DNA of 64,000 nt. It comes from Patescibacteria group bacterium (GTDB lineage Bacteria; Patescibacteriota; Microgenomatia; Curtissbacterales; GWA2-41-24). Positions 1 to 37,298 of this stretch are shown one piece after another. The position numbers were made by a program, and so were the translations under genes. Position 1 is the first letter of the stretch. Every line of letters begins with the position of its first letter. The DNA is taken from contig JBBTUN010000004.1 in the NCBI GenBank assembly GCA_038063735.1, positions 106,646-170,645 of the forward strand, given 5' to 3'. Under the pieces are notes generated by a model, which had not been told where the DNA came from, ran no database searches, and worked only from the letters and a program-made list of their open reading frames with translations.

Positions 1-683
1 TGGGGGAGTTATATTATTTTGAGCTAATTCTCCTACTCGCAGGTACGTATTCCATAGTTAAAAATAAAGAAAAGTATGCGTTTTTAATTTTCGGGTGGTT
101 ACTTATCTCTCCTCTTGGGCCTGCTACAGCCCGAGAAACACCTCATGCGCTTCGAATGGCCCATATTCTGCCAACTTTTCAGGTAATTTCAGCGTACGGC
201 CTTTACTATTTATTGAATAGATTTAAATTCAGGAAACTTATGATTATTTCAACACCGCTGGTGATCGGTCTTTCTGTTTTTGCCTACTTGCACTTTTACC
301 ACGTCCATTACCCTAAAGAATATTCGGGTGAGTGGCAATATGGGTACAAGGAGGCAATTAACGAGGTAGCAGCTCAGCAGAGCAAGGTAGGCAAAGTCGT
401 AATTTCAAACTATATTGGCAGGGCTTACATAAATTTACTTTTTTATACAAAAGTCGACCCGGCAGATTATATAGCCAAAGCAAACGTTACACGAGACGAG
501 CAATTTTTCTATAATGTCAATAGTTTCGACAAATACATTTTTACGGACCATATTGAAGCATTTAACAGTGCAAATACCCTTTATGTATCCTCACCTGGAC
601 ATTTACCATCTTCGGCGCTTAAGCTTAAAACAGTCTATAACTTAAATAATTACCCTGTCTTTGAGGTAGGAATTATCCCATGA
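1..683 (+). CDS. GT-C glycosyltransferase (PMT/ArnT-like), 5'-truncated by the window start. Only the C-terminal TM region and periplasmic domain are present.
   Basis: The reading frame is open from position 3 to the stop at 681-683. The upstream part (…FGWLLISPLGPATARETPHALR) aligns with the last-TM region of paralogs 2191-3873 and 5665-7251. The C-terminal WQYGYK…YTKVDP block is shared with those paralogs. Confidence 0.6.
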   Translation, partial: GELYYFELILLLAGTYSIVKNKEKYAFLIFGWLLISPLGPATARETPHALRMAHILPTFQVISAYGLYYLLNRFKFRKLMIISTPLVIGLSVFAYLHFYHVHYPKEYSGEWQYGYKEAINEVAAQQSKVGKVVISNYIGRAYINLLFYTKVDPADYIAKANVTRDEQFFYNVNSFDKYIFTDHIEAFNSANTLYVSSPGHLPSSALKLKTVYNLNNYPVFEVGIIP

Positions 684-2194
684 TAAAGTTTATACAGATA
701 ATTAAGTCTAATAAATACGAATTAATAACCTGGGCGGTTCTCCTGCCAGCATTTCTATTAACTCGTCTTGTAAATCTTAAAGTAATTCCAATTTTTACGG
801 ATGAGGCAATTTATAGCTACTGGGCTCAAGTTGCTCTTCATGATCCTGCAAACCGATATATTTCCCTGGAAGACGGTAAGCAACCATTGTTTATCTGGAT
901 TGCAGCGGTTTTTCAATTCTTTATTAAAGATCCATTAGTTGCGACAAGACTCGTCTCGGTGCTTTCGGGCTTTTTAGCGCTTATTGGTATTTACCTCCTC
1001 GCTAGAGAGATTTTTAATAAAACTAGTGCCAAAATTGCTGCCCTAATCTACATACTAATTCCGCTGACTCTTCTTTATGACAGAATGGGACTTTTCGATT
1101 CTTTACTGGCAATGCTTGGTATTTGGGCGGTTTTTTTCTCCATAAAGGTGGCAAAAAATGGCCACCTGGATAATGCCCTTCTCAATGGTTTTGCAATTGG
1201 CCTCGCCACAATAACAAAGTCTTCCGGAAACTTTTTCTTGTATCTATTACCATTCTCACTCGTATTCTTCCCCTTTAAAAGTAAAGGTTTTTTGGAAAAA
1301 ATATTCAAATGGATATTTTTTACATTTGTTACGATAGCATTATCGCAAATAATTTATAACTCACTAAGGCTTTCCCCGCTCTTTTACTTAATAGCCAGGA
1401 AAAATCAAGAGTTTATAAGACCACTATCCGAGGTAATCAACGAACCATTTAAATTCTTTGTCTCCAACACTCATGCAATAACTGAATGGCTAGTGTCATA
1501 TGTAGGCATACCCTTATTTCTCATTTTTTTGACGGGTCTAGCAATAGGGGTTGTTACAAAAGATAAGAGAATTTTTTATCTTGGTGTACTCATCTTTGCA
1601 CCCTTTTTTGCAGAAGCTCTTTTCAACAAGGTTTTATATCCCAGATTCGTATTGTTTTACTTTCCGTACATCATCCTTGTAATCGCCTGCGCCTTCGATT
1701 ATTTATTTACAAGATTTTTATCCCAAAAAAATATAATTGCAGTTGTATTAATATTTGCGCTACTTCAACCTGCGATCAAATCGTTTAAGTTGCTAACAGA
1801 CCCTCCCAGTGCCGGACTAGTCGACGCCGATGCAAGCCAATATCTTAATAGCTGGCCAGCGGGATATGGAGTAGATGAAGTGCTTCAATTCATTCGAAGC
1901 AAGTCACAAGACAAAGCAATATTTATAGGAACCGAAGGAACATTCGGTCTTTTCCCGTTCTCATTAAATATTTACAACTTTAATAATCCCAAGGTGCAAA
2001 TACGCGCTTATTGGCCGGTAAACCCAAGCGATTTGCCAAAAGAAGTTACGGAAATATCGAAAAAAATGCCTACCTATTTTGTCTTTAATGAAAACCAACA
2101 CGAAATAAATAATAGCAGCCTCAAGTTGATTCAGAAAATTAAAAAGGGCAGCGGAGAAAGTTATATGAGGCTTTACCAAGTGATCCCTCGATGA
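680..2194 (+). CDS. GT-C family glycosyltransferase (PMT/ArnT-like, GT39/GT83-like), 504 aa polytopic membrane protein
   Basis: N-terminal TM helix followed by an FTDEAIYSYWA loop-1 'DE' motif. At least 10 predicted TM segments. ATGA overlap with the upstream gene. Confidence 0.6.
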   Translation: MIKFIQIIKSNKYELITWAVLLPAFLLTRLVNLKVIPIFTDEAIYSYWAQVALHDPANRYISLEDGKQPLFIWIAAVFQFFIKDPLVATRLVSVLSGFLALIGIYLLAREIFNKTSAKIAALIYILIPLTLLYDRMGLFDSLLAMLGIWAVFFSIKVAKNGHLDNALLNGFAIGLATITKSSGNFFLYLLPFSLVFFPFKSKGFLEKIFKWIFFTFVTIALSQIIYNSLRLSPLFYLIARKNQEFIRPLSEVINEPFKFFVSNTHAITEWLVSYVGIPLFLIFLTGLAIGVVTKDKRIFYLGVLIFAPFFAEALFNKVLYPRFVLFYFPYIILVIACAFDYLFTRFLSQKNIIAVVLIFALLQPAIKSFKLLTDPPSAGLVDADASQYLNSWPAGYGVDEVLQFIRSKSQDKAIFIGTEGTFGLFPFSLNIYNFNNPKVQIRAYWPVNPSDLPKEVTEISKKMPTYFVFNENQHEINNSSLKLIQKIKKGSGESYMRLYQVIPR

Positions 2195-3873
2195 AAAATT
2201 TTTTCACCAAAAACTGGCTTCTTATTTTTACCATTATTTTGGCAGCAATACTCAGATTAACCTATTTGCAGCAAATTCCTGTAGGGTTTAATGACGACGA
2301 AGCTGCTTTCGGCTACAACGCCTATTCAATTTCAAAAACAGCCAGGGACGAATGGGGCACACTCATGCCTTTCCCCGCATTCGAGAGCTTTGGTGACTGG
2401 AAACTGGTAGGTTATCTTTACCTTGTAGTTCCATTTATATACGCTTTTGGACTCACAGAGTTTGCAACACGCTTCCCTTCTGCCATTATTGGAATTTTGG
2501 CCGTTTTTACAACTTACCTTTTAGCAAAGGAAATTTTTAACAAAAAAACTGCAATAATTGCCTCCTTGTTGTTGGCTATCTCGCCTTGGCATATTGCAGC
2601 ATCCAGAAATGCTTTTGAATCAGATATCTTAATTTTTTTTAACACTCTTTTTATTTTCTTTTTCTACAAATCACTTAACAATTTCAAATACTTCAAATTT
2701 TTTATACTGACTGCAACGATAACTTTTTATATATATAGATCGGCTTGGGTTTTTACACCGCTGCTTGTTTTTTGCTTATTTCTAATCTTTGAGAACAATT
2801 TTAAAAAATACAGAAAAGAGGTACTTAAGTATTTTATTATTTCTTTTGTTTTACTTATCCCAATAATTTTAAGTGCGTTTTCTTTTAGAGGGCAATCCAG
2901 GTTCATTCAAGAAAGCTTTATTTATGGTGTTCAAAATTCCGGTATATCTCAATCTCTAAACGAGCGACTTGGTTTTTGCTCACAACGATACTCGCGCGTA
3001 ATTTGTCGTGTAGTCTACAACAAGCCGACGTTTTTTATAAGTCAGTTCACACAAAATTATATAGAAAACTTATCTCCAAACTTGTACTTCATAAATGGAA
3101 CAAGCGGTTATCAGGGTTTTGCTCCTCGTGGTTTTCTCTATTTTTTTGAATTGCCTCTAGCCTTAGCCGGTTTAATTTATCTTTTAAAAAAATGGTCAAA
3201 TACTACAAAAGTTATTCTTGCTTGGCTGCTTATAGTACCCCTAGCGCCTTCACTAACAAGTGTTGGTAACCCAGGCAGGCTTAATATTTTACTTCCGCTC
3301 CCACAAATTCTCGCTAGCGTGGGTGTGATATTTTTATATTCAAGCGTTAGGCAAAAAGCGTTAAGGCAAGCATTTTTGCTAGTGGTCACGGCAATTATTT
3401 TAATTTCCTTTGTGAGGTTTATTATGGACATAAGTACTATATATCCTATATTCACAGCAAGGTCACAACGTTATGGATACAAGGATGTTTTTAACTACGC
3501 ATATTCTCAAAAAAATAATTATGAGCAAATTGCGATATCCCGAAAAACTGATGACGCCAAGCAATATATTCATTTTCTAATGTACACAAAATACGATCCA
3601 AGTACTTATCACCAAAAGCAAATTCACACAAAAGACAATCAGGGCTGGCAAAATGTCCAAGCAATTGGAAAATTTCATTTTTATGGAAGTACACCGGCAA
3701 TTGAAGAGTTACCGTTAAATAGTTTACTTATAGTGGGTGAAAAAGAGGTAGATTACCCACAAGCCGCACTAAAGTATTATATAAACGATCTAAGAGGAGA
3801 CAGGCTTTTTGAGGTTTATGATATGAATGTAGTCAACAAGATAATTACCGATCAAAATAGAAATATCAATTAA
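2191..3873 (+). CDS. GT-C family glycosyltransferase (PMT/ArnT-like), paralog
   Basis: FNDDEAAFGYNAYSISKTARDEWGTLMPFP loop-1 motif, typical of PMT/GT39. Polytopic, with a C-terminal soluble domain carrying a YGYK…YTKYDP block. ATGA overlap. Confidence 0.7.
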   Translation: MKNFFTKNWLLIFTIILAAILRLTYLQQIPVGFNDDEAAFGYNAYSISKTARDEWGTLMPFPAFESFGDWKLVGYLYLVVPFIYAFGLTEFATRFPSAIIGILAVFTTYLLAKEIFNKKTAIIASLLLAISPWHIAASRNAFESDILIFFNTLFIFFFYKSLNNFKYFKFFILTATITFYIYRSAWVFTPLLVFCLFLIFENNFKKYRKEVLKYFIISFVLLIPIILSAFSFRGQSRFIQESFIYGVQNSGISQSLNERLGFCSQRYSRVICRVVYNKPTFFISQFTQNYIENLSPNLYFINGTSGYQGFAPRGFLYFFELPLALAGLIYLLKKWSNTTKVILAWLLIVPLAPSLTSVGNPGRLNILLPLPQILASVGVIFLYSSVRQKALRQAFLLVVTAIILISFVRFIMDISTIYPIFTARSQRYGYKDVFNYAYSQKNNYEQIAISRKTDDAKQYIHFLMYTKYDPSTYHQKQIHTKDNQGWQNVQAIGKFHFYGSTPAIEELPLNSLLIVGEKEVDYPQAALKYYINDLRGDRLFEVYDMNVVNKIITDQNRNIN

Positions 3874-3876
3874 TAA

Positions 3877-5655
3877 ATGGATTTTTACCATTCATTTCAA
3901 TCATCAGTTCGAGAAAAATTAAACATTTGGATAATTCTAATCCTATTATTAGGATCGTTATTGCGCCTTATCGACCTTGGTGGGATTCCTTCAGGTTTTC
4001 AGTACGACGAAATTCAAAGCGCTTACAACGGATTTTTAATTTCAAAACACTTAAAAAACATTCAAGGCGAATTTTTACCCACAGACATAGACTATTTTAG
4101 AGACTTTAGGCCGGCTTTTAATGCTTATCTCTCAAGTGTAACTGTCAAACTACTAGGCAACCATGAAACTTCAGGACGCCTGCCATCCGCTCTTTTAGGA
4201 ATAATCACAATATTGCTTGTATATTTACTAACTTTAAAGTTTTTTCAAAAAAAACAAATCGCAATCCTTGCAGCTCTGCTTATAGCAATTTCACCGTACC
4301 ATGTTATTTTTTCTCGCAGCTCATCCGATAGCATTATCGACGTAACACTTTCAATCTTCGCAATTTTAATTTCACTAAAATATTTAGGCAAGGGAGACAA
4401 AAAGTTGTTGCCATTGATATTAGTAACTTGGATCTTTAGTTTCTATACATATCAAACAGGCAGAATAATGATACCAATTTTATCTTCTGTAATAATTATT
4501 ATAGATTGGTTGAAAACGAAATCATTTAGCAAATCAAAATGGCTAATATTCACTTTAATAATATTTTTAATTTTCCCCCTAGGATACTCGATAGCAACAA
4601 AAAAAGGCTCAAGTAGATTTAATCAAGTAAGCGTTTTTGCAAACCCAGAAATTCAACGGTCACTAAATCAAATAATCACTGAATCCGGCGTCGTAGGTAT
4701 AAACCCTACAATAGTTCGAGTTTTCAATAACAAATTAATTTCTTACTCGATGCAGGCTTCACAGAATTATTTGTATTTTTTCTCTCCCGAAAATATGTTG
4801 TTTGACAAAAATGTGAAACCGCTAAGATACAAAATACCGCAAGTAGGGCTGATAACAATTACGGAATACCTCGGTCTCTTGGCGGCTTGTTACTTCTTCA
4901 TTAAAGGAAAAAACAAAATTAAGTCATCTTTTCCTTTCATAGCTATATTAATTGCTCCACTACCAGCTGCAATAACGTCCGAAGATTTTCAAAGATCCAT
5001 ATATCTAATACCCTACTGGCAAATTCTAGCTAGTTTTGGCTTATATAACATGATCAAATCTATCACCTCCAAAAAATTGTTATTATTTGGTGTGTCAATT
5101 GTTATTGTAGTAGTAACATACCAGGCATTATTCTTTGCCTATCAATATTTTCTGATTTCACCCGTCCATGAACCTTTTTATAGAACATACGAAAGGAAAG
5201 AATTAGCCATTTTCCTGGGCTCTAACGAAAATATGAACAAAAATGTCTTACTGTCAGAGTACGACGGAACATATATTTACTATCTATACTTTAATAAGTT
5301 GGATATATTTTCTCTGAAATATAAAAAACCAACCAAATACTTCGAGGGTGATTTTACTATGGTAAATATGACATTTAAAAAGAACAGATGCCTGGGAGGA
5401 AATGATTATTTGGAAAATCGATACGATATGTCTATTGAATATGAAGATTGCAAAAAATTTCCTTTTTTAGCGCCAGTCAAGGAATTTAGAAGAAAAGATG
5501 GCTCTTTAGTATTAGTTGCATACAATATAAACGGTTATATCTACGACTTACAAAGGCAGTATCAAGAAACCTGCGAGAAGGATTGGGGACCATCAGACGG
5601 TGATTTACTACAAAGTGCTAATTCCATTAGAACCACTATTAATAATTGTAATTAG
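3877..5655 (+). CDS. GT-C family glycosyltransferase (PMT/ArnT-like), paralog
   Basis: QYDEIQSAYNGFLISK loop-1 motif. Polytopic N-terminal half and a large soluble C-terminal domain. Confidence 0.65.
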   Translation: MDFYHSFQSSVREKLNIWIILILLLGSLLRLIDLGGIPSGFQYDEIQSAYNGFLISKHLKNIQGEFLPTDIDYFRDFRPAFNAYLSSVTVKLLGNHETSGRLPSALLGIITILLVYLLTLKFFQKKQIAILAALLIAISPYHVIFSRSSSDSIIDVTLSIFAILISLKYLGKGDKKLLPLILVTWIFSFYTYQTGRIMIPILSSVIIIIDWLKTKSFSKSKWLIFTLIIFLIFPLGYSIATKKGSSRFNQVSVFANPEIQRSLNQIITESGVVGINPTIVRVFNNKLISYSMQASQNYLYFFSPENMLFDKNVKPLRYKIPQVGLITITEYLGLLAACYFFIKGKNKIKSSFPFIAILIAPLPAAITSEDFQRSIYLIPYWQILASFGLYNMIKSITSKKLLLFGVSIVIVVVTYQALFFAYQYFLISPVHEPFYRTYERKELAIFLGSNENMNKNVLLSEYDGTYIYYLYFNKLDIFSLKYKKPTKYFEGDFTMVNMTFKKNRCLGGNDYLENRYDMSIEYEDCKKFPFLAPVKEFRRKDGSLVLVAYNINGYIYDLQRQYQETCEKDWGPSDGDLLQSANSIRTTINNCN

Positions 5656-5664
5656 AATTAACTT

Positions 5665-7251
5665 ATGAAAAATAAAATTTTAATATTAATAATCGTCCTT
5701 TCCTTTATCTTCAGATTTTACAGATTGGGCGAGATACCTTTAAGCCTTAATTGGGATGAAGTAAGTAATTCTTACAACGCATATTCGATATTAAAAACAG
5801 GTCGGGACGAATACGGCAATTTTTTACCCTTAACTAATCGTTCCTTTGACGATTATAAACCGCCCCTTTACATGTACTTGGACATAGTGCCTGTGGCTCT
5901 GGTGGGACTTAACGAAATTGCTGCAAGGCTTCCTTCCGCACTCTTTGGGGTAATGAGCGTATATGCCATTTATTTATTAACAAAAAGGTTGTCAAAAAAC
6001 GAAAAGACATCTCGCCTAAGCGCACTTCTTTTTTCTATCTCACCTTGGAATTTACTTTTTTCCAGAGTGGGGTTTGAAGCAAATATTGGGCTTTTCTTCT
6101 CAATCATAACTCTTATGCTATTTCACTATGCCCTTCGTTATTCAGAAAACAATCCAACCCCAAAAAACAAACTATTTTTAGTGTTAAGCGCTATCTTTGC
6201 AGCACTTTCTTTATACAGTTACCACTCCGTGAGGATTTTCTTGCCGCTAATTCTTTTTGTCTCGGCAGTGATCTACAGAGAGAATCTCTTAAAATTCGAT
6301 AAAAAGATTCTTTCGGTATCAATTTTGCTAGGTATCGCATTAACACTACCACTCGTACTTCTAAACCCCAAAGAAGCTATCACTGGCAGGTACGCAACAA
6401 CAACCCTAAAAGCAAGGTCCCAGGATTTGGAAAAATCAGTAAGTCTTATAAATGAGGATAGTAACGCCCGTCAATTCTTTGGCAACATAATTCATAACCG
6501 CAGATTAGTTATTCTGGAGTCAACACTTCAAAAATACATCTCTCATTTTGATATTAACTATTTATTTACTTCAGGAGACGACAACCCCAGACATCATCTT
6601 AAAACGAATGGCCTTCTATTCTTGGTTATGTTACCTCCAGTATTGTACGGAGTTTTTTCTTCCTTAAAAAAGAACAGCAAAGAAACACTCTTTTTATTTT
6701 CGTGGCTTATTGTCGCGCCTATTCCTGCCGCATTTGGAGACGCCTTCCCTCACGCCATAAGGAGCTACTTAATGGTTGTTCCCTTAACAATCTTTGGGGC
6801 TATCGGTTTAAAAAAAATAGTTACTTTTGAAAAATTCGCAAAATTTACCCTCGCCCTGTCTTCATTGATTCTTTTAGCAACCGTTGTTGCTTTTCTTCAT
6901 AATTATTTTGCTCACTACAATAAAGAAGAATACTCGTCTTGGCAATATGGCTATAAGGGGGCCGTTTTTGAATCAGCGAAACTTAAGGATCAGTTTGAAA
7001 AAGTTATAATTGATCCCGGCATAGAACAGGGGTACGCTTTTTGGCTTTTCTATTTAAAATACGATCCTAAGGCCTACCAGGAAAGTGGCAACGCCAAAAA
7101 CTTTGATAAATTTTATTTCGAAGATAACTTGCCCAAAGATGATAACAGTCTTTTTGTTTCACCATCAGAAAAATTTCCTGAAAGTTTTATTTTAGTTAAA
7201 ACAATTTACAATTCTGAAAACAATATATTGTTGAAATTGGGACACCCCTAA
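5665..7251 (+). CDS. GT-C family glycosyltransferase (PMT/ArnT-like), paralog
   Basis: NWDEVSNSYNAYSILKTGRDEYGNFLPL loop-1 motif. The C-terminal WQYGYK…YLKYDP block is shared with 1-683 and 2191-3873. Confidence 0.7.
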   Translation: MKNKILILIIVLSFIFRFYRLGEIPLSLNWDEVSNSYNAYSILKTGRDEYGNFLPLTNRSFDDYKPPLYMYLDIVPVALVGLNEIAARLPSALFGVMSVYAIYLLTKRLSKNEKTSRLSALLFSISPWNLLFSRVGFEANIGLFFSIITLMLFHYALRYSENNPTPKNKLFLVLSAIFAALSLYSYHSVRIFLPLILFVSAVIYRENLLKFDKKILSVSILLGIALTLPLVLLNPKEAITGRYATTTLKARSQDLEKSVSLINEDSNARQFFGNIIHNRRLVILESTLQKYISHFDINYLFTSGDDNPRHHLKTNGLLFLVMLPPVLYGVFSSLKKNSKETLFLFSWLIVAPIPAAFGDAFPHAIRSYLMVVPLTIFGAIGLKKIVTFEKFAKFTLALSSLILLATVVAFLHNYFAHYNKEEYSSWQYGYKGAVFESAKLKDQFEKVIIDPGIEQGYAFWLFYLKYDPKAYQESGNAKNFDKFYFEDNLPKDDNSLFVSPSEKFPESFILVKTIYNSENNILLKLGHP

Positions 7252-7273
7252 AAATACTCACAAGGGAGCATAA

Positions 7274-8812
7274 TTACTGGTAGTCTGGGTCGAATTTAGA
7301 CATTATCTTTTTAATCAAAAATTTCCAGAAGTCGTTGCCTGGTTTGGGTATATCTTTTTTCCACCATTCAACGGTATCAATATATATGTCCTCAGCATTT
7401 TGTCTGTACCACGTAATATTTGTATTCGCTCTAACCGCACTATTTAAAACTTGCCAGTTCCCTAGGCAGACCCCAATATTTTCCCCAGCATTGTAATTAA
7501 TACTGTGATTAAGCATTATCAAAGCAACCGGGTAGTTGATATTATTAACATCAGTACTGCAAGAGTACAGATCAATATTTCTGTTGGGAAACTCTACTAT
7601 AATTTCGGAGGCAATTTTTCTGGCTAGTAAATAATCCTTAGCTTTGGCACTAACATTATTAGAAGTCAAAAATAGTGTACAAATTGTTATTAGTAAAACT
7701 AAAATCAGGCCTAAATATCTATTTTTTCCTAGTAACCAGACACAAGTCGATGCGGTAATTAAAAATACCATAGGATAGGAAAATACAGAAAGGTATAATG
7801 CACGCCCACCTCGATAATATTTGAAAAGGAAAATTTCAACTAAAAATGACAAGATCAGGTAAAGATAAACAATGTTTTTTCTGAAGTTAACTATCCTTGT
7901 AGCTGTATATAGTCCGGATAAAAATATAATTAGCATAGCCACAATTTTGTTGCCACCAATTATTATTGCCCAAGTATTTGGCCAAAAGTCAAAAACGTAT
8001 GTTAACCATCGATTAGGAACCCAAAGTTTATTTTGGTCGAAAAGGAGGTAAATAAGTATGCTACGAAAATTGTACCAGCCAAACCTGTAGTCAAAATATA
8101 TTAGCGGGGAAAGTGCGAACAAACACCCGGCTGTCACCAATAGGGCACATATTATAAATTTAGAAAAGGGTCTGACAAGCAGTAGGGCAATAAATAACAT
8201 AGGAATTATTAATATGTTTTGAAAATGTACAGTCCAGGCTAAAAAGACAGAGAAACTTAGCAAAAATATATACACTTCCTTTCTAGTTTTGATAAATTTA
8301 ACAAAAAATAATAATGAGGTTAAAACCAGAATTGGAACAACTGATACATTCCAGGTAGTAAGTGAATTAGCCACCTGAGCTGGAGAGATTGATGCGAAGA
8401 ACGCAGACAGCAGTCCAACTTTTCTGCCAGCAGCATCCTTCCCTAATAGAAAAATTAGCATTATAAAAAGTAAATCAATTAGTGTGCTAAAAAACCAAGG
8501 AACTAAAAGGCCTGGTATAAAACTTATCAACACCAAATACCAGTAGTACCATGGTCCATAGAAAAATGGACCTGCGGATGAAAATTGACCTATCTGAGGA
8601 ATGAGGAAGTTTTTTGCAGCAAACTTTCCAATAATTACGTCCCTGGAATTATCAGCATTGAATGCAATTCTATGAGTATAGTTATATGTTCTAAGAAATA
8701 ACGCACATGCAAATATAAAAATGATTGTGACCGCGAATAATTTTTTCGATGTAGCTTGTTTATTGAGCCTTTTAAAGCTCTTTATTTGATTAAAATCATT
8801 GAACGAAATCAC
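7274..8812 (-). CDS. Polytopic membrane protein, probable GT-C glycosyltransferase (ArnT-like)
   Basis: 512 aa with more than 10 hydrophobic segments. Aromatic-rich periplasmic loops. The genomic context is glycosylation genes. Confidence 0.45.
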   Translation of the reverse strand: MISFNDFNQIKSFKRLNKQATSKKLFAVTIIFIFACALFLRTYNYTHRIAFNADNSRDVIIGKFAAKNFLIPQIGQFSSAGPFFYGPWYYWYLVLISFIPGLLVPWFFSTLIDLLFIMLIFLLGKDAAGRKVGLLSAFFASISPAQVANSLTTWNVSVVPILVLTSLLFFVKFIKTRKEVYIFLLSFSVFLAWTVHFQNILIIPMLFIALLLVRPFSKFIICALLVTAGCLFALSPLIYFDYRFGWYNFRSILIYLLFDQNKLWVPNRWLTYVFDFWPNTWAIIIGGNKIVAMLIIFLSGLYTATRIVNFRKNIVYLYLILSFLVEIFLFKYYRGGRALYLSVFSYPMVFLITASTCVWLLGKNRYLGLILVLLITICTLFLTSNNVSAKAKDYLLARKIASEIIVEFPNRNIDLYSCSTDVNNINYPVALIMLNHSINYNAGENIGVCLGNWQVLNSAVRANTNITWYRQNAEDIYIDTVEWWKKDIPKPGNDFWKFLIKKIMSKFDPDYQ

Positions 8813-8832
8813 TTTAGCTGTATACTAGCATA

Positions 8833-9594
8833 GTGAAAAATATTTCTGTAGCGCTAGCCTGTTACAACGAAGAGACCAATATTGTGGACTGCATTGAGGC
8901 TGCAAAACTCTTGGCAGATGAAATTATAGTAGTCGATGGTCACTCCCGGGATAGAACAGCTGAATTAGCACGCCAGCAAGGCGCAATTGTGGTTGAAGTT
9001 CCCAATAAAAAAATGTTTCACATTAATAAAAATATCGCCATTAAAAATTGCACAAATGAGTGGGTATTCGTATTGGATGCAGACGAGAGAATAACTGAAG
9101 ATCTTGCAATAGAAATAAAAAAAACACTAAGAAAAGTATCCAATGAAAAAGGCTTTTGGATAAATAGAAAAAACTGGTTTTTAGGGGGGTACTTAACAAA
9201 AGGTGGTGCCTACCCCGATGCTGTTATCAGATTATTTAAAAATGGATATGGAATTCATCCTGAAAAAGATGTGCACGAGCAAATTGCAATAAAAGGACCC
9301 CTTGGTCATATAACAAGCCCACTATTGCACTTAGCAGACCCCAATTTCGCAAGATACCTGGAAAGAGCGAATAGATACACCGACGAGACAAAGAGGCATT
9401 TCAAAGAGCAAAAACTAGCTAAAAATTTTCCGAACACAATTTATTATGTAATTATAAAACCAGCAATTACGTTCTTTAAGATTTATGTAAGACACAAAGG
9501 TTATGTGGATGGTTTTAGAGGCTTTGTCTGGGCGCTTTTTTCCTCAGCGCATTATTTTTATGCTTATTCTAAATACCTCACAGACAAAAAATAA
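8833..9594 (+). CDS. GT2 family glycosyltransferase (GT-A fold)
   Basis: VALACYNEE…IIVVDGHSRDRT…VLDADE motifs. GTG start. Divergent from 7274-8812. Confidence 0.7.
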   Translation: MKNISVALACYNEETNIVDCIEAAKLLADEIIVVDGHSRDRTAELARQQGAIVVEVPNKKMFHINKNIAIKNCTNEWVFVLDADERITEDLAIEIKKTLRKVSNEKGFWINRKNWFLGGYLTKGGAYPDAVIRLFKNGYGIHPEKDVHEQIAIKGPLGHITSPLLHLADPNFARYLERANRYTDETKRHFKEQKLAKNFPNTIYYVIIKPAITFFKIYVRHKGYVDGFRGFVWALFSSAHYFYAYSKYLTDKK

Positions 9595-9656
9595 TTTTAA
9601 CGCTTGCAATAATTCGTAAAACTTGATAACAATCTTATACAGTAACTTTTTTAAAA

Positions 9657-9666
9657 AAGGAGGTGA
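9657..9666 (+). promoter_or_regulatory. Strong Shine-Dalgarno AAGGAGGTGA, 9 nt upstream of the ATG at 9676
   Basis: Direct sequence match to the anti-SD. Confidence 0.55.
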
Positions 9667-9675
9667 TTAAAAAAC

Positions 9676-9813: not shown

Positions 9814-9837
9814 GTTGTTTCTATTCAGTTCGAACTG

Positions 9838-9889
9838 CCCACCTCCAAGTTTTAAAGTGAATCTTTAAAAACATGTAGGTGGGTTTTAT
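9838..9889 (+). terminator. Putative intrinsic terminator with a long loop
   Basis: CCCACCT (9838-9844) pairs with AGGTGGG (9877-9883). It is followed by TTTTATT. Confidence 0.3.
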
Positions 9890-9922: not shown

Positions 9923-10954
9923 GTGAAAGTTGCATTTAACATATCGCCAAATTCAACAAACCACAAATTTCGGGGCATAGGTGTTTACACCTTATCACTC
10001 CAAAGAGCCCTCAAAGAGCATTCGGGTAAAGAGATTGATATTGAGTTCTTCTCAGCTATCAAAGAACCAGCCGGCTTTGATTTAATTCATTACCCATACT
10101 TCGATTTGTTTTTCCACACACTCCCTATGCAAAAAAAAACTTGCCGAGTTGTAACGATTCATGACGTAATACCACTGATCTTTCCGGATAAATTTCCTGT
10201 GGGTATAAAAGGCAAATTTAACCTGCTTTTGCAAAAACGGGCTCTTAAAAACACGGATGCTGTAATATGTGACTCATATCAATCAAAAAAAGATATTCAA
10301 AAATATCTAAACTTCCCGGAAGAGAAAATACATGTGGTCTACTTGGCAGCGGACAAAATATTTACAAATTTTAGGACCATTCCGCCAGCTATCAGGCTAA
10401 AATACAAGCTCCCTTCCAAATTTGTTCTATATGTTGGAGACGTTAATTATAATAAGAACATACTAAATCTTCTGGATGCTGTAAAAATTACAGGTGTCAA
10501 CCTAGTCATGGTTGGATCAGCAATTATTAACGACAAAATACCCCAGGTGCAAGAAATAAATCACAAAATCTCAAAATTAGGCTTACAAGATAAGATTACT
10601 AAAACAGGCTATATCCCAGACTCGGAACTGGTAGCAATTTACAACCTGGCCATTGTAACTCTAGTGCCGTCATTGTACGAAGGTTTTGGACTACCTTTAG
10701 TAGAAAGTATGTCTTGTGGCACCCCCGTCATTGCCGCTAAAAATTCATCACTAACTGAAATCGGTGGCGAAGCGGCTTTCTATTGCAAAGCAGAAGATCC
10801 AACAGACCTCGCCAATAAAATTAAGAAGGTTGTTGGTCTAAACGAGAAGGAACTCTCAAGCATCAGGCAAAAATCCCTTAAAAACGCAAGAAAATATTCT
10901 TGGTCGAAAACTGCTCAGGAAACTATTAATGTATACAAGTCGGCTATCAAGTGA
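9923..10954 (+). CDS. GT4 family glycosyltransferase (GT-B fold)
   Basis: EGFGLPLVESMSCGTPVIA motif, typical of GT4. GTG start. Confidence 0.75.
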   Translation: MKVAFNISPNSTNHKFRGIGVYTLSLQRALKEHSGKEIDIEFFSAIKEPAGFDLIHYPYFDLFFHTLPMQKKTCRVVTIHDVIPLIFPDKFPVGIKGKFNLLLQKRALKNTDAVICDSYQSKKDIQKYLNFPEEKIHVVYLAADKIFTNFRTIPPAIRLKYKLPSKFVLYVGDVNYNKNILNLLDAVKITGVNLVMVGSAIINDKIPQVQEINHKISKLGLQDKITKTGYIPDSELVAIYNLAIVTLVPSLYEGFGLPLVESMSCGTPVIAAKNSSLTEIGGEAAFYCKAEDPTDLANKIKKVVGLNEKELSSIRQKSLKNARKYSWSKTAQETINVYKSAIK

Positions 10955-12060
10955 AACATAAATTTAATGACATCTATCTAGTAATTTTCCTTTTTATAAC
11001 CTGGCGCCTATTTATATTCACAGTGGCTGCCATTGCACCAAAATTTATACCCAACTTCGGTGGAACATTTCCATATTACAATGAGCGATTAATTTCCACA
11101 GGCTTGCCATATTATATTTGGTCCTTTGGGAATTTCGATGGTGTTCACTATTTAGGTATTGCCAGGGACGCCTACGCTTATCAGTTCACACAAGCCTTCT
11201 TCCCACTTTATCCAATATTAATAAAACTAGTCTCAATGATATTATTTAATAAGTATTTAATATCCGCCCTTCTTATATCAAACATCTGTTTCCTTGCCGC
11301 CCTGCTATTATTTTATAATCTGACAAAACGCATATACTCAAAAAGTGTTGCTCTTTGGTCGTGTGTATTTTTAATTTCTTTCCCAACGTCTTTTTACTTT
11401 GGATCAATCTACACAGAAAGCCTATTTTTACTTTTAGTCGTCCTCTCGTTTTATTTTTTTGAACAAAATAAAATAATTCTCGCCTCACTAATAGGAGGTA
11501 TCGCCTCTTTTTCCAGATTGGTAGGAATATTCTTAGCGCCTGCACTTGTTAAAAAAATCACCATAAAAAACTTAATACCAATTTTGATTGTTCCAACGGG
11601 GTTAATTATTTATATGATTTACTTGCAATATAAATTTCATAATGCGCTCTACTTTCTTACCGCACAAAGCGCCTTCGGGCAAGAAAGAGCAACAACAAAA
11701 ATTGTTTTACTCCCGCAGGTAATTTACCGGTGGATAGCTCAAATCACTTCGTCCCACGGACCCCAATTATTTGTATCAACTTTTGAATTAGCCGCTACCT
11801 TATTTGCCCTGCTGACTTTAATAGTAGGCGCCAGGAAAGTGAAAAGAGAGTGGTTAATTTTTAGCTCCCTTGCGCTTATTACACCAACATTAACGGGCAG
11901 CTTGGCATCTATGCCAAGATATATTCTCGTCGCTTTTCCAATTTTTATCATCCTTGCACATATTAAAAATCTTTATATTAAGCTGTTTATTACGGCGACA
12001 TTTATAATTCTTCTAACATACTGCGTATCTATGTTCACACGTGGTTACTGGATAGCGTAA
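10951..12060 (+). CDS. GT-C mannosyltransferase-like membrane protein (PIG-V/GT76-like)
   Basis: FDGVHYLGIARDAY motif resembling the PIG-V family 'W/FDxxHYLxIAexGY' motif. About 8 TM segments. Confidence 0.5.
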   Translation: MKHKFNDIYLVIFLFITWRLFIFTVAAIAPKFIPNFGGTFPYYNERLISTGLPYYIWSFGNFDGVHYLGIARDAYAYQFTQAFFPLYPILIKLVSMILFNKYLISALLISNICFLAALLLFYNLTKRIYSKSVALWSCVFLISFPTSFYFGSIYTESLFLLLVVLSFYFFEQNKIILASLIGGIASFSRLVGIFLAPALVKKITIKNLIPILIVPTGLIIYMIYLQYKFHNALYFLTAQSAFGQERATTKIVLLPQVIYRWIAQITSSHGPQLFVSTFELAATLFALLTLIVGARKVKREWLIFSSLALITPTLTGSLASMPRYILVAFPIFIILAHIKNLYIKLFITATFIILLTYCVSMFTRGYWIA

Positions 12061-12462: not shown

Positions 12463-13143
12463 GTGAATGCAGCAATTGTAATACCTGCTTTTAACGAAGC
12501 AGCTGTCATTTATAAAGTAGTAAAGTTTCTTCCGAAAAAGCTAAAAGGTATTAAAGATATCAGAGTTGTCGTTGTAGACGATGGATCAACAGACGACACA
12601 CGCTTACAAGCTAAAAAAGCTGGGGCTATTGTCCTGAGGCATCCTGTAAACAGAGGTGTTGGTGCAGCAACTAAGACAGGAATCGAATGGGCACGCAAGC
12701 AGTCTATCGATTTACTTATTACTTTCGATGCAGACGGCCAGCATAATCCCATAGATATACCAAGGCTCATTAAACCAATAATTAAAAACGAAGCAGATCT
12801 GGTGATAGGCTCACGGTTCAAAAGGCAGCAAAGTATACCCTTAGACCGGCTCATTTTAAATTGGTCTGCAAACTTAATCACCTTCATGCTATTCGGTATT
12901 TTTTCAACAGATTCACAATCAGGATTAAGAGCAATGTCCAAAAGAGCCATCAGAAATCTGAATTTTAAAAACGATAGAATGGAATTTTCAACGGAGGTCT
13001 TAATTGAGGCCAAGCGAAATAAATTAAAAACACGAGAAGTTCCAACGAGTGCCGTTTACACAGTTTACTCCAGAAAAAAAGGACAAAAAAACACGAACGC
13101 ATTTCCAATCTTTATCCGTTTTCTTGTAAAATGGCTTCGATGA
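12463..13143 (+). CDS. GT2 polyprenyl-phosphate sugar synthase (DPM1/ArnC/GtrB-like)
   Basis: IVIPAFNEA…VVVVDDGSTDDT…TFDADGQH motifs. Confidence 0.7.
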   Translation: MNAAIVIPAFNEAAVIYKVVKFLPKKLKGIKDIRVVVVDDGSTDDTRLQAKKAGAIVLRHPVNRGVGAATKTGIEWARKQSIDLLITFDADGQHNPIDIPRLIKPIIKNEADLVIGSRFKRQQSIPLDRLILNWSANLITFMLFGIFSTDSQSGLRAMSKRAIRNLNFKNDRMEFSTEVLIEAKRNKLKTREVPTSAVYTVYSRKKGQKNTNAFPIFIRFLVKWLR

Positions 13144-14030
13144 AAAAAATACTTGTAACTGGCGCTGGAGGATTTGTAGGCACTCATTTAATTGCTTTCC
13201 TTGCTAAAAAAAATTATCAATTAACAGCACTTGTTATGACTAATAGAGAGAAAAAAAGGTTAAAAGGGACAAGAAGTGTACTGGTTGCAGATTTATCAAA
13301 AAAAGGTACATGGCAAAAGAATTTGACGGGTTACGATCTGGTTATACATCTGGCTGCACAAATTTCGGCAAAAACACCTGATCTCTTTATAAAAAATAAC
13401 GTCGTCGCGACCCAAAATCTCATCGATGCCTTAAAAAAAAGTAAAGTTCCGGAAATAATACATTTTTCCTCCGCGGCGGTGACTTCAATTCGCCTCGATG
13501 ATTACGCCAGAACCAAAAAGACTCAAGAAGAAACAGTTAGAAAATCAAAGCTCAAATACACAGTTCTAAGACCATCTATGATATATGGCCCGGGTGATAC
13601 AAAAAATGTCGGCTGGTTAATTAAGATTGTAAAAAGTCTACCAATCATTCCCCTGCCAGGGGGCGGAGGGTTTGGCAGGCAACCTGTTTTTGTTGAAGAT
13701 ATTTGTAGGATAGTTGAAAAAACTATAAAAACAGGGTCCAAAAACAAAATATATGAAATTCATGGTAAAGAATATGTGAGTATGAAAAGAATGATAAACG
13801 TAATAGTAAAAAAGCTAAAAGCAAAGAGGATCCTAATAAATGTTCCCATCGCACTATTATTATTAGCAGTCAAGGCTAATGAATTCCTCTTGCCAAATCC
13901 TAAATTTACAACGGATCAAATAATGTCGCTTATTTCAGGGGAAAAATTTAAAGGTGATAAATGGTGGATTACGTTTGATATAATACCAACCAAGTTTGAA
14001 ACAGGAGTTGCCAAGATGATAAAAGGATAA
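13131..14030 (+). CDS. NAD-dependent epimerase/dehydratase (SDR). The start may be the ATG at 13140 (ATGA overlap).
   Basis: VTGAGGFVGTHL Rossmann motif. YARTK catalytic Y-x3-K. Confidence 0.65.
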   Translation: MASMKKILVTGAGGFVGTHLIAFLAKKNYQLTALVMTNREKKRLKGTRSVLVADLSKKGTWQKNLTGYDLVIHLAAQISAKTPDLFIKNNVVATQNLIDALKKSKVPEIIHFSSAAVTSIRLDDYARTKKTQEETVRKSKLKYTVLRPSMIYGPGDTKNVGWLIKIVKSLPIIPLPGGGGFGRQPVFVEDICRIVEKTIKTGSKNKIYEIHGKEYVSMKRMINVIVKKLKAKRILINVPIALLLLAVKANEFLLPNPKFTTDQIMSLISGEKFKGDKWWITFDIIPTKFETGVAKMIKG

Positions 14031-35980: not shown

Positions 35981-37298
35981 TGCCCTGATAATTTTGGCCT
36001 TTGTTGTTCGATTAGCTTTAATGCCAATATCTGTTCACTCTGATTTATTCTTTATAAATTATTTTCCTAACTTAATTTACACTAAAAATGTTTTTGACAT
36101 ATTTTCCTTTACTCATAATGATTTATCAAAATTAAACGTATCCTACTACCCACCGATTACGTTTTACTTTTTTGGGTTATTTCAGTATTTCTATCATTTT
36201 TTGTCTCAAAGTTTTTCACCATGGATGACCCAGATTTATAACCTTAGGATGAGCGGTGTAAATGGACAATCTTATGATTACCTATCTAAAGCTCCAAATG
36301 AGCACATTTATAAGGATATATTTTTAGCAAAATTTCCATACCTCTTATTTGACCTATCTTCAATTTACGTGATAATGATATATGCAAAAAAACATCTTCT
36401 TAGAAAAAACGCTATTCTAGTTTGGCTCTTTAATCCTGTTATTTTGTATGGTGTTTACTTAATGGGGCAATATGACGTAATTCCAGCATTTTTTGTCCTT
36501 TTAAGTTTTCTGTTAATAAGAAAAAATGTTTATCTTGGAATCATTGTGCTTGGGGTTGCCGCAGCGTTCAAGAATTTTGCCTTTATTTTTATTCTTCCGA
36601 CTATTCTAATTTATATGAAAAGCCCCATCGAGCGCCTCAAGCTTGCAATTGTATCCTTTCTGCCATATTTTGTTTTCCTCTGTCCTACGCTCATTCATGA
36701 CCCAACAGCGGCAATATTTTCGTTCCTTCCTAAAGTTTATTTATCATACCGCAAGCCACTTGAAGACTGGGCACTTTACTCTCAATACATTAAGTATGGG
36801 TTGTTCATGTTAGGGTATGGAGTATTTTTGACTATGTCTTTTTCATTAAAAAGCAGAGATAAGTGGAGACTTGCTGTTGGACTTTGTTTGGCTTCCATTT
36901 TGCTCTTTTTTTCCTTTGCACCAAGAATCTCATTTCATTATCTTCTTTGGGGTGTTCCATTAATAATTATTTGGTATAAAAATTCAAAGACATCATTTTT
37001 AATAATATTAATCCAATCAATAAGCTTAGCCTCTTACAAATTATTGGCGATACAACTGCAACTAGGACTATTTGCTCCAATAAACCTCGCTTTTTCAGTA
37101 TCAACAACGTTTAATGGTTACGTAAATAATTTTTTCCCTTATCGGATAATTAGTACAATGGGATATTTTATTTTTCTTTTTACAAATCTATTTTTAATTA
37201 CTCAAATTATTTTAAACCTATTATTTAGCGAGCCTGCTCTCGTTAAAAATATTGAGAAGAAAAGAGAAAGAAAACAACTTATTTTTCAATCAAGTTAA
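35973..37298 (+). CDS. Polytopic membrane protein (GT-C-like, paralog of 51957-53333). The start is moved to the ATG at 35973, which overlaps the stop of the upstream gene.
   Basis: At least 10 TM segments. It shares a …YYPP… block with 51957-53333 (TTDYPPFAF). Confidence 0.45.
   Translation: MFSALIILAFVVRLALMPISVHSDLFFINYFPNLIYTKNVFDIFSFTHNDLSKLNVSYYPPITFYFFGLFQYFYHFLSQSFSPWMTQIYNLRMSGVNGQSYDYLSKAPNEHIYKDIFLAKFPYLLFDLSSIYVIMIYAKKHLLRKNAILVWLFNPVILYGVYLMGQYDVIPAFFVLLSFLLIRKNVYLGIIVLGVAAAFKNFAFIFILPTILIYMKSPIERLKLAIVSFLPYFVFLCPTLIHDPTAAIFSFLPKVYLSYRKPLEDWALYSQYIKYGLFMLGYGVFLTMSFSLKSRDKWRLAVGLCLASILLFFSFAPRISFHYLLWGVPLIIIWYKNSKTSFLIILIQSISLASYKLLAIQLQLGLFAPINLAFSVSTTFNGYVNNFFPYRIISTMGYFIFLFTNLFLITQIILNLLFSEPALVKNIEKKRERKQLIFQSS

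Follow-up and report, generated by a model that had tools for sequence, protein, structure and literature searches.

Several systems of integral-membrane glycosyltransferases have been described that bear on the locus reported here. ArnT (CAZy GT83; PDB codes: 5EZM and 5F15), the undecaprenyl-phosphate-L-Ara4N:lipid A transferase, is the product of one gene and acts on lipid A. The PMTs (CAZy GT39), such as yeast Pmt1, Pmt2 and Pmt4 and M. tuberculosis Rv1002c, are marked by a PMT_4TMC module and, in eukaryotes only, by MIR domains. The multi-component systems by which Gram-positive bacteria glycosylate across the membrane (GacI/GacJ/GacK/GacL; CsdAB/CD/EF with CflA; GtlA/GtcA/GtlB) and the mycobacterial PpgS/Rv3632/Rv3779 have one GT2 enzyme per GT-C enzyme and GtrA or Wzx as flippase. 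GacJ and Rv3632, both of the DUF2304 family, are activators of GacI and PpgS (bioRxiv 10.1101/180810). The characterised Gram-positive PMT_2 enzymes (GtlB, GttB, GtcC, CsdD, CsdF, GtsC and GacL) all act on LTA, WTA, rhamnan or other wall polysaccharide (PMC8035078). Sets of extracytoplasmic GT-C enzymes are also present in mycobacteria, namely the EmbA/B/C tandem, AftA-D, MptA-C and PimE.

The array described here lies in a 64,000-nucleotide stretch of DNA (the window). Its genes encode integral-membrane GT-C (class A) glycosyltransferases of the PMT/ArnT clan, ArnT/PMT/STT3-like, and are further members of an already known enzyme kind. Identity of the family to ArnT is 13%; in contrast to ArnT, the array has seven to nine paralogs and no ArnA/B/C/D operon, and its host is a Patescibacterium, in which lipid A is not expected. 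A Pfam profile search found neither PMT_4TMC (PF16192) nor MIR in any paralog, and their C-terminal soluble domain is unlike that of the PMTs. The likeness to the Gac, Csd, Gtl and PpgS systems lies in gene content: GT-C enzymes of the PMT_2 type adjoin a PpgS-like GT2, a DUF2304 activator and a small candidate flippase here, inside a rhamnose-containing glycan island. For GacL, CsdD and Rv3779, the resemblance shown is one of parts list and not of sequence-level orthology. Unlike those systems, the locus has one recognisable donor module per seven to nine GT-C enzymes, and the flippase candidate is SMR/ArnEF-like. The mycobacterial GT-C sets, to which the array may be likened by analogy, are structurally much less similar to it than ArnT, STT3 or PMT; their C-terminal domains differ, and the array paralogs lack CBM-like domains.

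Layout of the array

The sequence-only reading had described a tandem array of five consecutive same-strand genes, the first truncated. All five ORFs are as described (Table 1), but the whole array is larger. The window matches the source contig (L004) with 0 mismatches, and full-length G0 (531 aa) was read from that contig at 8409-10004. The contig continues upstream of the window start with two further paralogs, of 550 and 494 aa, and an ORF of 148 aa, so that the whole-contig array consists of seven same-strand paralogs, this ORF and one convergent paralog. The G0/G1 and G1/G2 junctions are ATGA stop/start overlaps, and the G2/G3 and G3/G4 spacers are 3 and 9 nt; the five genes are part of a co-directional operon and are probably co-translated. 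The source contig comes from Hainich groundwater, from Patescibacteria near Curtissbacteria, which are bacteria of tiny size.

Table 1. Array genes, donor-module genes and other GT-C genes of the window (scores in bits unless given as E)
Feature	Coordinates	Strand	Profile match or state	Motifs and domains
G0 (C-terminal 226 codons; 531-aa GT-C paralog)	1..683, ORF from nt 3	+	5'-truncated by window edge	PHALR nt 141-155; WQYGYK 333-350; YTKVDP 444-461
G1 (504-aa GT-C, divergent subfamily)	680..2194	+	PMT_2 56.2	DEAIYSYWA at aa 41 (DE aa 41-42, nt 800-805); KQPL aa 67-70
G2 (560-aa GT-C)	2191..3873	+	PMT_2 43.4, STT3 25.3, PMT 24.0	DDEAAFGYNAYS at aa 35; DDE aa 35-37 (DE nt 2296-2301); QRYGYK; YTKYDP nt 3583-3600
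G3 (592-aa GT-C)	3877..5655	+	PMT_2 55.1	DEIQSAYNGF at aa 44 (DE aa 44-45, nt 4006-4011)
G4 (528-aa GT-C)	5665..7251	+		DEVSNSYNAYS at aa 31 (D31-E32 nt 5755-5760); K65-P-P-L 5857-5868; HNRR 6493-6504; PHAIR 6748-6762; WQYGYK 6940-6957; YLKYDP 7051-7068; alpha/beta domain aa 421-528
G5r (512-aa GT-C-like, convergent)	7274..8812	-	PMT_2 20.4, below cut-off	
GT2 glycosyltransferase, 253 aa	8833..9594	+	PF00535 65.6	
GT-C-like membrane protein (PIG-V/Mannosyl_trans2-like)	10951..12060	+	PF04188 22.9 (cut-off 22.4)	
SMR-type ArnF/ArnE-like membrane protein, 122 aa	12088..12456	+	PF00893 25.6	
GT2, PpgS/GacI-like, 226 aa	12463..13143	+	NCBIfam PpgS E 3.2e-47	
NAD-dependent sugar epimerase/dehydratase family protein	13131..14030	+	PF01370 96.6	
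DUF2304 protein, 117 aa	14031..14384	+	PF10066 80	
G37k (502-aa PMT_2 GT-C, another subfamily)	37279..38787	-	PMT_2 48.7	
G54k (559 aa, array subfamily, unlinked)	54411..56090	+		DEVD aa 37; HNRR aa 276
G56k (558-aa more distant PMT_2 GT-C)	56092..57768	-	PMT_2 29.6	GDEAVY

Fold, motifs and family placement

PMT_2 (PF13231; gathering score 26.1 bits) passes its cut-off in all four of the five genes that are complete in the window, with 43-56 bits, and in full-length G0 as well (52 bits). G0, G2, G3 and G4 are mutually homologous over nearly their full length (BLASTP E 1e-8 to 4e-52), with identities of 30% across 508 aa between G2 and G4 and of 27-28% between G3 and either of these. G1 aligns to G2 and G4 over its N-terminal ~100-140 residues only (E ~9e-8). 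Both the mutual homology and the placement in the PMT/ArnT clan had been proposed from the letters of the window, as had the loop-1 Asp-Glu strings, all of which are exact in the translations.

The Asp-Glu after TM1 is kept by every full-length copy of the five. The 23- and the 12-sequence alignments both show D31, E32, R88, S133-R134 and the PHAxR Arg without variation, whereas K65 (K66 in G0 numbering), E138 and the PHAxR His are either without variation or conserved to at least 90%. In the AF2 model, which is confident (pLDDT 89.4, pTM 0.89), the Asp-Glu directly follows TM1 (helix 4-18) and stands at the start of the first external helix (30-45); a K-P-P motif lies downstream of it. The KPPL of the family aligns to the KPPF motif of ArnT (HMMER), at what we take to be the position of the ArnT Lys that binds polyprenyl phosphate. 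The pair is placed where PMT and ArnT have their loop-1 catalytic Asp, and the Asp-Glu of this first external loop is predicted to be catalytic. Its earlier interpretation as the signature of PMTs (GT39) does not hold, because most GT-C enzymes have a DE or DxD ahead of their first external helix (PMC12331936).

The paralogs have ~12-13 transmembrane helices and an extracytoplasmic alpha/beta C-terminal domain of ~110 aa. As had been noticed before, most of their divergence falls in two parts, the central external loop and the C-terminal domain, which are expected to be the acceptor-reading ones. The C-terminal block said to be common to three of the genes is nearly so: G0 and G4 carry an exact WQYGYK and G2 and G4 an exact Y[TL]KYDP, but G2 has QRYGYK and G0 has YTKVDP. 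The block is degenerate in G3 (RTYERK...NKLD), whose C-terminal domain is longer, Cys-containing and degenerate, and it is barely recognisable in G1, where the domain resembles those of the other paralogs only faintly.

By structure and profile searches, the family is about as close to ArnT as to STT3/AglB, Pmt4 and ALG12. In the comparison with known structures suggested earlier, the family profile matched the PDB entries of ArnT (E 3e-9) and AglB (E 3e-8), but that of Pmt1 with no better than E 0.6. The AglB match, together with an STT3 score marginally over cut-off in G2 (25.3 vs 24.5 bits), is consistent with OST-like enzymes (STT3/AglB/PglB), which would transfer a pre-assembled glycan en bloc from polyprenyl diphosphate to protein. 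The many cytoplasmic GT4 and GT2 enzymes of the island could build such an oligosaccharide, and W-Q-Y-G-Y, which immediately follows the last TM helix, would then be a degenerate form of the W-W-D-Y-G that OSTs presumably carry directly after theirs. We nevertheless regard this as highly improbable. A Gln replaces the Asp of WWDYG, the C-terminal domain is much smaller than in OSTs and its profile has no PDB match at E<=10, and archaeo_STT3 (NCBIfam) scores 14-26 bits against a cut-off of 450. In addition, neither an initiating phosphoglycosyl transferase nor Wzx was recognised in the window, and the module beside the array, with its PpgS-like, GacJ-like and ArnF-like proteins, belongs to the monophosphate-sugar type.

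Age and distribution of the paralogs

Nucleotide similarity among the paralogs is absent except for a 46-nt patch at the motif. Paralogs are 26-39% identical to one another and 45-71% identical to their 1:1 orthologs in related genomes; orthologs of G1 in Curtissbacteria are 52-64% identical, and those of G2 in L006, G3 in L005 and G5r in L006 are 47%, 47% and 42% identical, respectively. The paralog clades span several Microgenomates lineages or candidate phyla, and the G0 and A types are found throughout Microgenomates. These observations indicate that the duplications are ancient, in agreement with the sequence-only reading. Microgenomates genomes contain at least 558 relatives; a 21-kb locus has 2-8 copies, and arrays of this size are the norm in the group.

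It has also been considered that the array is recent or decaying, made of redundant copies without diversified function, some of them pseudo-enzymes. G5r has D-N at the DE position, G37k has no DE at the homologous place in its N-terminal sequence, and the G2/G3 slot differs from genome to genome. However, the five array genes are intact ORFs with an invariant DE, and this scarcely tenable idea is contradicted by the nucleotide divergence, by 1:1 orthologs that are each far closer than any paralog, and by clades common to candidate phyla.

Donor module and acceptor

The genes for the ArnF-like, PpgS-like, epimerase and DUF2304 proteins lie 5-7 kb downstream of the array on the same strand, and this module also follows the array in two relatives. 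The 253-aa GT2 adjoins the array, in a position conserved in relatives. The 226-aa GT2 is a candidate polyprenyl-phosphate-sugar synthase (AglJ E 2.8e-29), and the 122-aa SMR-type protein is a candidate polyprenyl-phosphate-sugar flippase (ArnF E 2.5e-13; ArnE E 8e-6). It should be mentioned that the PpgS and ArnF matches fall short of the equivalog cut-offs (160.8 vs 370 and 50.5 vs 99 bits). The window as a whole forms a large glycan island, which contains Rml genes, numerous GT4 and GT2 genes, methyltransferases and a nonulosonic-acid pathway.

We propose that the paralogs are probably extracytoplasmic glycosyltransferases that depend on polyprenyl-phosphate-sugars and differ from one another in acceptor or linkage, an envelope glycan being the likeliest acceptor. 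The homology, fold, motif conservation, synteny and orthology are shown by the data above; from genomic context and analogy, we infer the donor type, the flipping step, the inversion and the acceptor class. The PpgS/GacI-like GT2, with its GacJ-type DUF2304 helper, would take a sugar from its nucleotide-sugar form and load it onto polyprenyl phosphate at the inner membrane face; the ArnE/F-like SMR protein would flip the lipid-linked sugar to the outer face; and each GT-C paralog would transfer this one sugar, by an inverting reaction, to a separate acceptor or position outside the membrane. A cell-envelope (surface) glycan as the most likely acceptor would fit two models: the enzymes may decorate a wall polymer, like GacL, CsdD or GtlB, or they may assemble a glycan step by step outside the cytoplasm, like the mycobacterial Emb, Aft and Mpt enzymes. 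One donor is assumed to feed all array enzymes, and the single clear synthase/flippase module for seven to nine of them is a counterpoint. The presumed glycan acceptor pathway is incomplete in the window, where neither a phosphoglycosyl transferase nor Wzx, Wzy, an ABC exporter or an LCP ligase could be recognised.

The ArnF/ArnE-like protein near the array could also point to ArnT-like lipid modifiers, which would change surface charge or resistance by attaching a sugar to a glycolipid of the membrane or to a molecule with a lipid anchor (lipid A equivalent, lipoteichoic-acid anchor or lipoglycan). This is improbable, considering that the NCBIfam ArnT equivalog scores ~20 bits against a cut-off of 567, that no Ara4N pathway of ArnA/ArnB/ArnD architecture was identified beside the array, and that seven to nine conserved paralogs fit poorly with one lipid target. 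Patescibacteria are also commonly considered to lack lipid A.

Surface proteins, for example pili or S-layer, are a real alternative acceptor. The paralogs would then be bacterial protein O-glycosyl (O-mannosyl) transferases that modify Ser/Thr, each in another class of secreted or surface protein (such as pilins, S-layer proteins or lipoproteins), in parallel with eukaryotic PMT1/2/4, TMTC1-4 and TMEM260. PF02366 (PMT) passes its cut-off in G0, G4 (27.2 bits), G2 and the two upstream paralogs, and there is a slight lean towards PMT because it outscores PMT_2 in full-length G0 (66.8 vs 52.3 bits). The N-terminal pattern [LI]R[FL][YH].L....P.S..[WF]DEV..G appears to align to residues 49-82 of Pmt1, including D77-E78; the Pmt1 sequence used agrees with the PDB alignment over its residues 137-286. 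The nonulosonic-acid pathway in the same island also counts against the glycan reading, as pilins, flagellins and S-layers are the classic proteins to which nonulosonic acids are linked. The protein O-glycosylation role put forward earlier is thus possible, but other roles are possible too and it does not have the best support, because the DE is generic, PMT_4TMC is absent, the NCBIfam PMT equivalog NF058602 fails (15.3 vs 800 bits) and the Gram-positive PMT_2 enzymes glycosylate wall polymers rather than proteins; nothing specific points to O-mannosylation. Actinobacteria, moreover, are known to have a single Pmt and are not known for arrays of seven to nine. Taken together, we consider protein targets rather unlikely and favour the envelope glycan.

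Further GT-C genes lie outside the array at 37, 52, 54 and 56 kb, and the core of the convergent G5r aligns to family profile positions 90-196. Of the two genes proposed earlier for alignment with the array, G54k belongs to its subfamily (28% identity to G4 over 492 aa, BLASTP E 1e-51), and G56k is more distant, matching the family profile in the core only (22.5 bits).

Layout and ancestry of the array

The five same-strand GT-C paralogs that the sequence-only reading had placed at window nt 1-7251 are present as the forward-strand ORFs G0 to G4 (see the table), and the Asp-Glu (DE) strings that it quoted match the sequence exactly. ATGA overlaps at the G0/G1 and G1/G2 junctions, together with gaps of 3 nt (G2/G3) and 9 nt (G3/G4), indicate that G0-G4 form a tight operon. 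Upstream of the window on the source contig, dihydroorotase-like and PolB-exonuclease-like genes precede paralog A, paralog B, a 148-aa ORF and the full-length G0, the last four being on the strand of the array. Given these upstream paralogs and the convergent GT-C-like gene G5r, the unit consists of seven co-directional paralogs and one convergent gene. The ENA contig Hain_H41_01um (Hainich groundwater, 112.5 kb) shows 0 mismatches to the window in a 12.2-kb overlap. A scan of nt 1-10000 found no excess of promoters or terminators compared to shuffled sequences; where G4 and G5r converge, no terminator stands out.

Coordinates and properties of the features (window nt unless a locus is named; identity is to the counterpart in related genomes; bits are followed by the cut-off)
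Feature	Position	Strand	Length (aa)	Identity (%)	Remarks
Paralog A	upstream of window	+	550	71	
Paralog B	upstream of window	+	494		
G0	3-683	+	531	61-64	open at window edge; length of full gene on source contig
WQYGYK of G0	333-350				directly after last transmembrane helix
G1	680-2194	+	504	52-57	
G2	2191-3873	+	560	47	
ORF within G2	3177-3455	-	92		antisense; unsupported, most likely spurious
G3	3877-5655	+	592	47	
G4	5665-7251	+	528	45-51	
WQYGYK of G4	6940-6957				directly after last transmembrane helix
G5r, GT-C-like	7274-8812		512	42	convergent
GT2	8833-9594	+			
GT4		+			within 7 kb downstream of array
PIG-V-like GT-C	10951-12060	+			
ArnF/ArnE-like SMR protein	12088-12456	+			flippase candidate; ArnF E 2.5e-13, 50.5 bits (99); Pfam SMR 25.6 bits (23.7)
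PpgS-like GT2	12463-13143	+			candidate polyprenyl-phosphate-sugar synthase; PpgS E 3.2e-47, AglJ E 2.8e-29, below equivalog cut-off; synteny conserved
Epimerase	between PpgS-like GT2 and DUF2304 genes	+			
DUF2304 protein	14031-14384	+			PF10066 80 bits (25.5)
dTDP-rhamnose genes	19385-22013				RmlD-like, RmlC, RmlB-like
Polytopic membrane proteins	26190-27893; 28621-30144; 35922-37298; 51957-53333		440-570		last one also GT-C-type
Other GT-C-type genes	37279-38787; 54411-56090; 56092-57768				
KpsS/TagF-like protein	38774-40489		571		faint matches
Nonulosonic-acid pathway	42276-49244	-			
TPP enzyme	61779-63961	-			acetolactate-synthase family, below equivalog cut-offs
Small ORF after B-type GT-C	L004 7966-8412 (upstream of window); L005 4622-5068; L006 4809-5222, 2799-3296		137-165		
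B-like GT-C with N-terminal repeats	L006 950-2734		594		

The paralogs are homologous to each other. In BLASTP comparisons, G0, G2, G3 and G4 form one subfamily with the unlinked gene at 54411-56090, at 24-32% identity across most of each protein (E 1e-8 to 4e-52). G1 can be aligned to the other paralogs only over ~100-140 N-terminal residues, and the gene at 56092-57768 is more distant from the subfamily than G1. At the DNA level, the paralogs have only a 46-nt stretch at the motif in common. A 1.08-Mb JGI contig and the Curtissbacteria MAG GCA_030647775 have these genes in an identical order; identity to the respective counterparts is 42-71%, compared to just 26-39% from paralog to paralog.

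A scan with one genome per GTDB species yielded at least 558 relatives, and all titled matches are of Microgenomates type (Curtiss-, Chisholm-, Gottesman-, Levy-, Roizman- and Woesebacteria). The 80 loci that were analysed generally have 2-8 family members per 21 kb. Typing by best hit and by a neighbor-joining tree without bootstrap, which agree, shows G0-type and A-type clades that span all the Microgenomates-type lineages found, while G4, B, G2 and G3 represent mainly Curtissbacteria-level clades with sister sequences elsewhere; the other lineages have extra paralogs of their own. The one-to-one counterparts, closer to each other than the paralogs are, and the clades that cross lineages imply that the duplications are ancient, as had been suggested from the sequence, and that the copies have been individually maintained. 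A recent duplication or a set of pseudogenes was rejected in view of the DNA divergence, the one-to-one counterparts and the spread of the clades. A horizontally acquired island was also rejected, the GC content of the 1-8 kb region (0.335-0.377) being inside the window range of 0.32-0.40.

The G2/G3 position (equivalent to window 2191-5655) differs among close relatives at loci L005, L006, L009 and L010: one genome has a G3-type gene only, one a G2-type only, and others two G2-types and one G3-type. It looks like a diversifying slot in an otherwise fixed array. It is noted that numerous array-bearing GTDB representative MAGs from 'binchicken' co-assemblies, including L010, L013, L018 and L019, carry the title 'uncultured Gammaproteobacteria bacterium', probably a mislabelling or a placeholder in the records.

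Fold and active site of the family

PMT_2 (PF13231) is matched by G1 (56.2 bits), G2 (43.4), G3 (55.1), G4 (43.3) and full-length G0 (52.3) above the cut-off of 26.1, with no match for the window fragment of G0 alone. The AlphaFold2 model of G4, built from 23 sequences (pLDDT 89.4, pTM 0.89), predicts a multi-helix membrane fold that can be superimposed on solved GT-C enzymes; the figures listed for this comparison, which carry no label, are ArnT 24.8, STT3B 23.3, Pmt4 23.0, ALG12 21.7, Pmt2 20.9, AglB 20.5 and PglB 18.0. The family profile matches ArnT (E 3e-9), AglB (3e-8) and Pmt1 (0.6). We assign the family to the class-A GT-C enzymes, at a roughly equal distance from GT83, GT66 and GT39.

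D31-E32 (G4 numbering) is invariant in both alignments, of 23 and 12 sequences. Other invariant or nearly invariant residues are Y37-N-A-Y-S41, K44, D48, K65-P-P, R88, S133-R134, E138, R309, P362-H-x-x-R366, W426 and G429. K65/66-P-P-L is aligned to K-P-P-F of ArnT (chain residue 88) in three HMMER alignments; in the ArnT structure, the lysine of the (E)KPP motif reportedly binds the polyprenyl phosphate. R88 is aligned to R138 of Pmt1 in the profile alignment, and the model places D31-E32 between TM1 (helix 4-18) and the first external helix (30-45). We accept that the DE motif is positionally homologous to loop 1 of PMT and ArnT, as the sequence-only reading had it. A phmmer search of the PDB with G4 and the G0 N-terminus found ArnT only, and the alignments stop short of the DE motif; they therefore do not show the loop-1 homology against a solved structure. 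With a presumed Pmt1 sequence, the family HMM puts DE on D77-E78 at a negligible score (-1.2 bits), a lead only; its residues 137-286 are consistent with the output of the profile search against the PDB. With the presumed N-terminus of E. coli ArnT, the alignment did not reach DE. In most GT-C enzymes the catalytic DE/DxD lies just upstream of the first external helix (PMC12331936). The motif is thus a GT-C feature and not the catalytic signature of PMTs (GT39) for which it had been taken.

The C-terminal block, which we would describe as a family-specific extracytoplasmic tail domain in the style of ArnT, is indeed present in three genes, but not with a uniform sequence: G4 has WQYGYK and YLKYDP, G0 has WQYGYK and YTKVDP, and G2 has QRYGYK and YTKYDP. 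G3 and G1 are the most diverged in this block. W-Q-Y-G-Y-K resembles the oligosaccharyltransferase W-W-D-Y-G-Y motif in sequence and position, which would suit transfer of a glycan en bloc in the manner of these enzymes. However, HMM and fold comparisons gave no support for such a motif, and the combination of WWDYG with the large C-terminal domain of STT3/AglB/PglB (GT66) was not found in the paralogs; we consider en bloc transfer extremely unlikely.

Candidate donor module and probable acceptor

Within 7 kb downstream of the array, on the same strand and in an arrangement kept in relatives, lie the genes from the GT2 at 8833-9594 to the DUF2304 gene (see the table), among them a module of putative donor-supply genes. 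[quoted passage not shown] DUF2304 proteins include GacJ and Rv3632, activators of the polyprenyl-phosphate-HexNAc synthases GacI and PpgS (bioRxiv 10.1101/180810). In the three-component logic of such systems, the polyprenyl-phosphate sugar produced by a GT2 is flipped by a small transporter, after which a GT-C enzyme carries out the transfer on the outside (PMC8035078; PMC11127046). The acceptors of the characterised Gram-positive PMT_2 enzymes reviewed in PMC8035078 are all LTA, WTA, rhamnan or other wall polysaccharides. A single donor module next to so many conserved and non-redundant GT-C paralogs is also reminiscent of the Emb/Aft/Mpt sets of mycobacteria. Because of this logic, these acceptors and this likeness, we favor polyprenyl-phosphate-sugar-dependent transfer to a cell-envelope glycan, in which each paralog would serve its own position or linkage.

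The sequence-only reading had instead proposed protein O-glycosylation. PF02366, the PMT N-terminal domain, is strong in G0 (66.8 bits), exceeds its cut-off of 22.7 in G4 (27.2) and G2 (24.0) as well, and is absent in G1 and G3; nonulosonic acids, for which the window has a pathway, are often protein-linked. However, NF058602, the NCBIfam equivalog for bacterial Pmt, gives 15.3 bits against a cut-off of 800, in G4 only. No MIR beta-trefoil domain was matched in the paralogs, and the central loop of the G4 model is predicted to be helical; among PMTs, this domain is known from the eukaryotic ones only. PMT_4TMC (PF16192), the defining C-terminal four-TM module that is named as part of the PMT architecture (PMC12331936), has no match in any paralog at E<=0.01. 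Protein O-glycosylation is therefore an unlikely function. We regard lipid modification of the ArnT type as very unlikely; it would fit the ArnF/ArnE-like protein beside the array, but NF009784, the lipid IVA Ara4N transferase model, scores 18-23 bits against a cut-off of 567. The Agl23-like TIGR03663 is the best NCBIfam match of most paralogs, but at 27-49 bits against a cut-off of 126.

Beyond the favored transfer to an envelope glycan, two bolder readings, taken jointly, are unlikely: a surface glycan built or heavily remodelled outside the membrane by the ordered, conserved GT-C set fed by one polyprenyl-phosphate sugar, or a new class of protein glycosyltransferases that have multiple specificities and, in WxYGY, an acceptor motif like that of OSTs. 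The first would be the counterpart, in monoderm cells with ultra-small genomes, of arabinan/mannan assembly in mycobacteria; its core would be the ancient G0/A pair, and the lineage-specific G2, G3, G4 and B, the last with its small partner ORF, would diversify the product.

The genes already carry domain-level annotation as GT39 family or ArnT-like, and neither their fold nor their chemistry is of a new kind. The new element is descriptive: a Microgenomates-specific family with an ancient G0/A core and lineage-specific paralogs in ordered tandem arrays that adjoin a PpgS/GacJ/ArnF-type donor module. Literature searches turned up no publication that deals with arrays of GT-C, PMT_2 or GT39 genes in Patescibacteria or Microgenomates. 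Patescibacteria have genomes of ~1 Mb and miss many biosynthetic pathways. The source contig, by contrast, has twelve or more GT-C-type genes within some 70 kb. This number, a gene order kept in Curtissbacteria-like genomes and G0/A-based arrays across Microgenomates point to an extracytoplasmic glycosylation program that these cells cannot do without. The program is probably linked to the cell surface, and may have a part in attachment or phage evasion. One-to-one orthology of the paralogs offers a clean framework for studying acceptor specificity in a GT-C family without a characterised member. The relevance is mainly to patescibacterial cell-surface biology and to annotation: NCBI labels G4 and G1 'MAG: glycosyltransferase family 39 protein [Patescibacteria group bacterium]', and 'GT39 / protein O-mannosyltransferase' should not be transferred to these genes.

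Possible partner ORF and surrounding glycan genes

A conserved small membrane ORF follows each B-type GT-C gene. Its 'RFFHNK..IY....Y...F.P.F' aligns weakly (6-8 bits) to the central 'IIHNRR...NYLSHF.PNFLF' of the GT-C family, exactly the segment that is absent from B-type enzymes, and the ORF may be a split-off or complementing piece of them. The B-like ORF of L006 opens with seven tandem 'RRKALLI' (a 21-nt repeat) before its normal N-terminus, which could reflect a start called wrongly or a 5' region in which the repeat length varies.

The remainder of the window forms a glycan island: besides Rml genes and methyltransferases, it has numerous GT4 and GT2 genes and a nonulosonic-acid pathway. 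Neither a phosphoglycosyl transferase nor a Wzx or ABC exporter was recognised in the window. The dTDP-rhamnose genes, lying among GT4/GT2 genes and methyltransferases, suggest a rhamnose-containing, methylated surface polysaccharide. The complete-looking nonulosonic-acid pathway (legionaminic/pseudaminic-type) includes NeuB, a CMP-transferase, UDP-GlcNAc 2-epimerase, DegT aminotransferase, hexapeptide acetyltransferase, formyltransferase, PIG-L deacetylase and C-methyltransferase, and the KpsS/TagF-like protein may be the transferase for its product. The four polytopic membrane proteins, with no family match or a weak one (DUF6798; PMT_2 17 bits), may represent additional GT-C enzymes or else polymerases or ligases. 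At the island edge, the TPP enzyme adjoins a DmpG-like aldolase fragment, and the two may serve not branched-chain amino-acid synthesis but a pathway for sugar side chains or keto acids.
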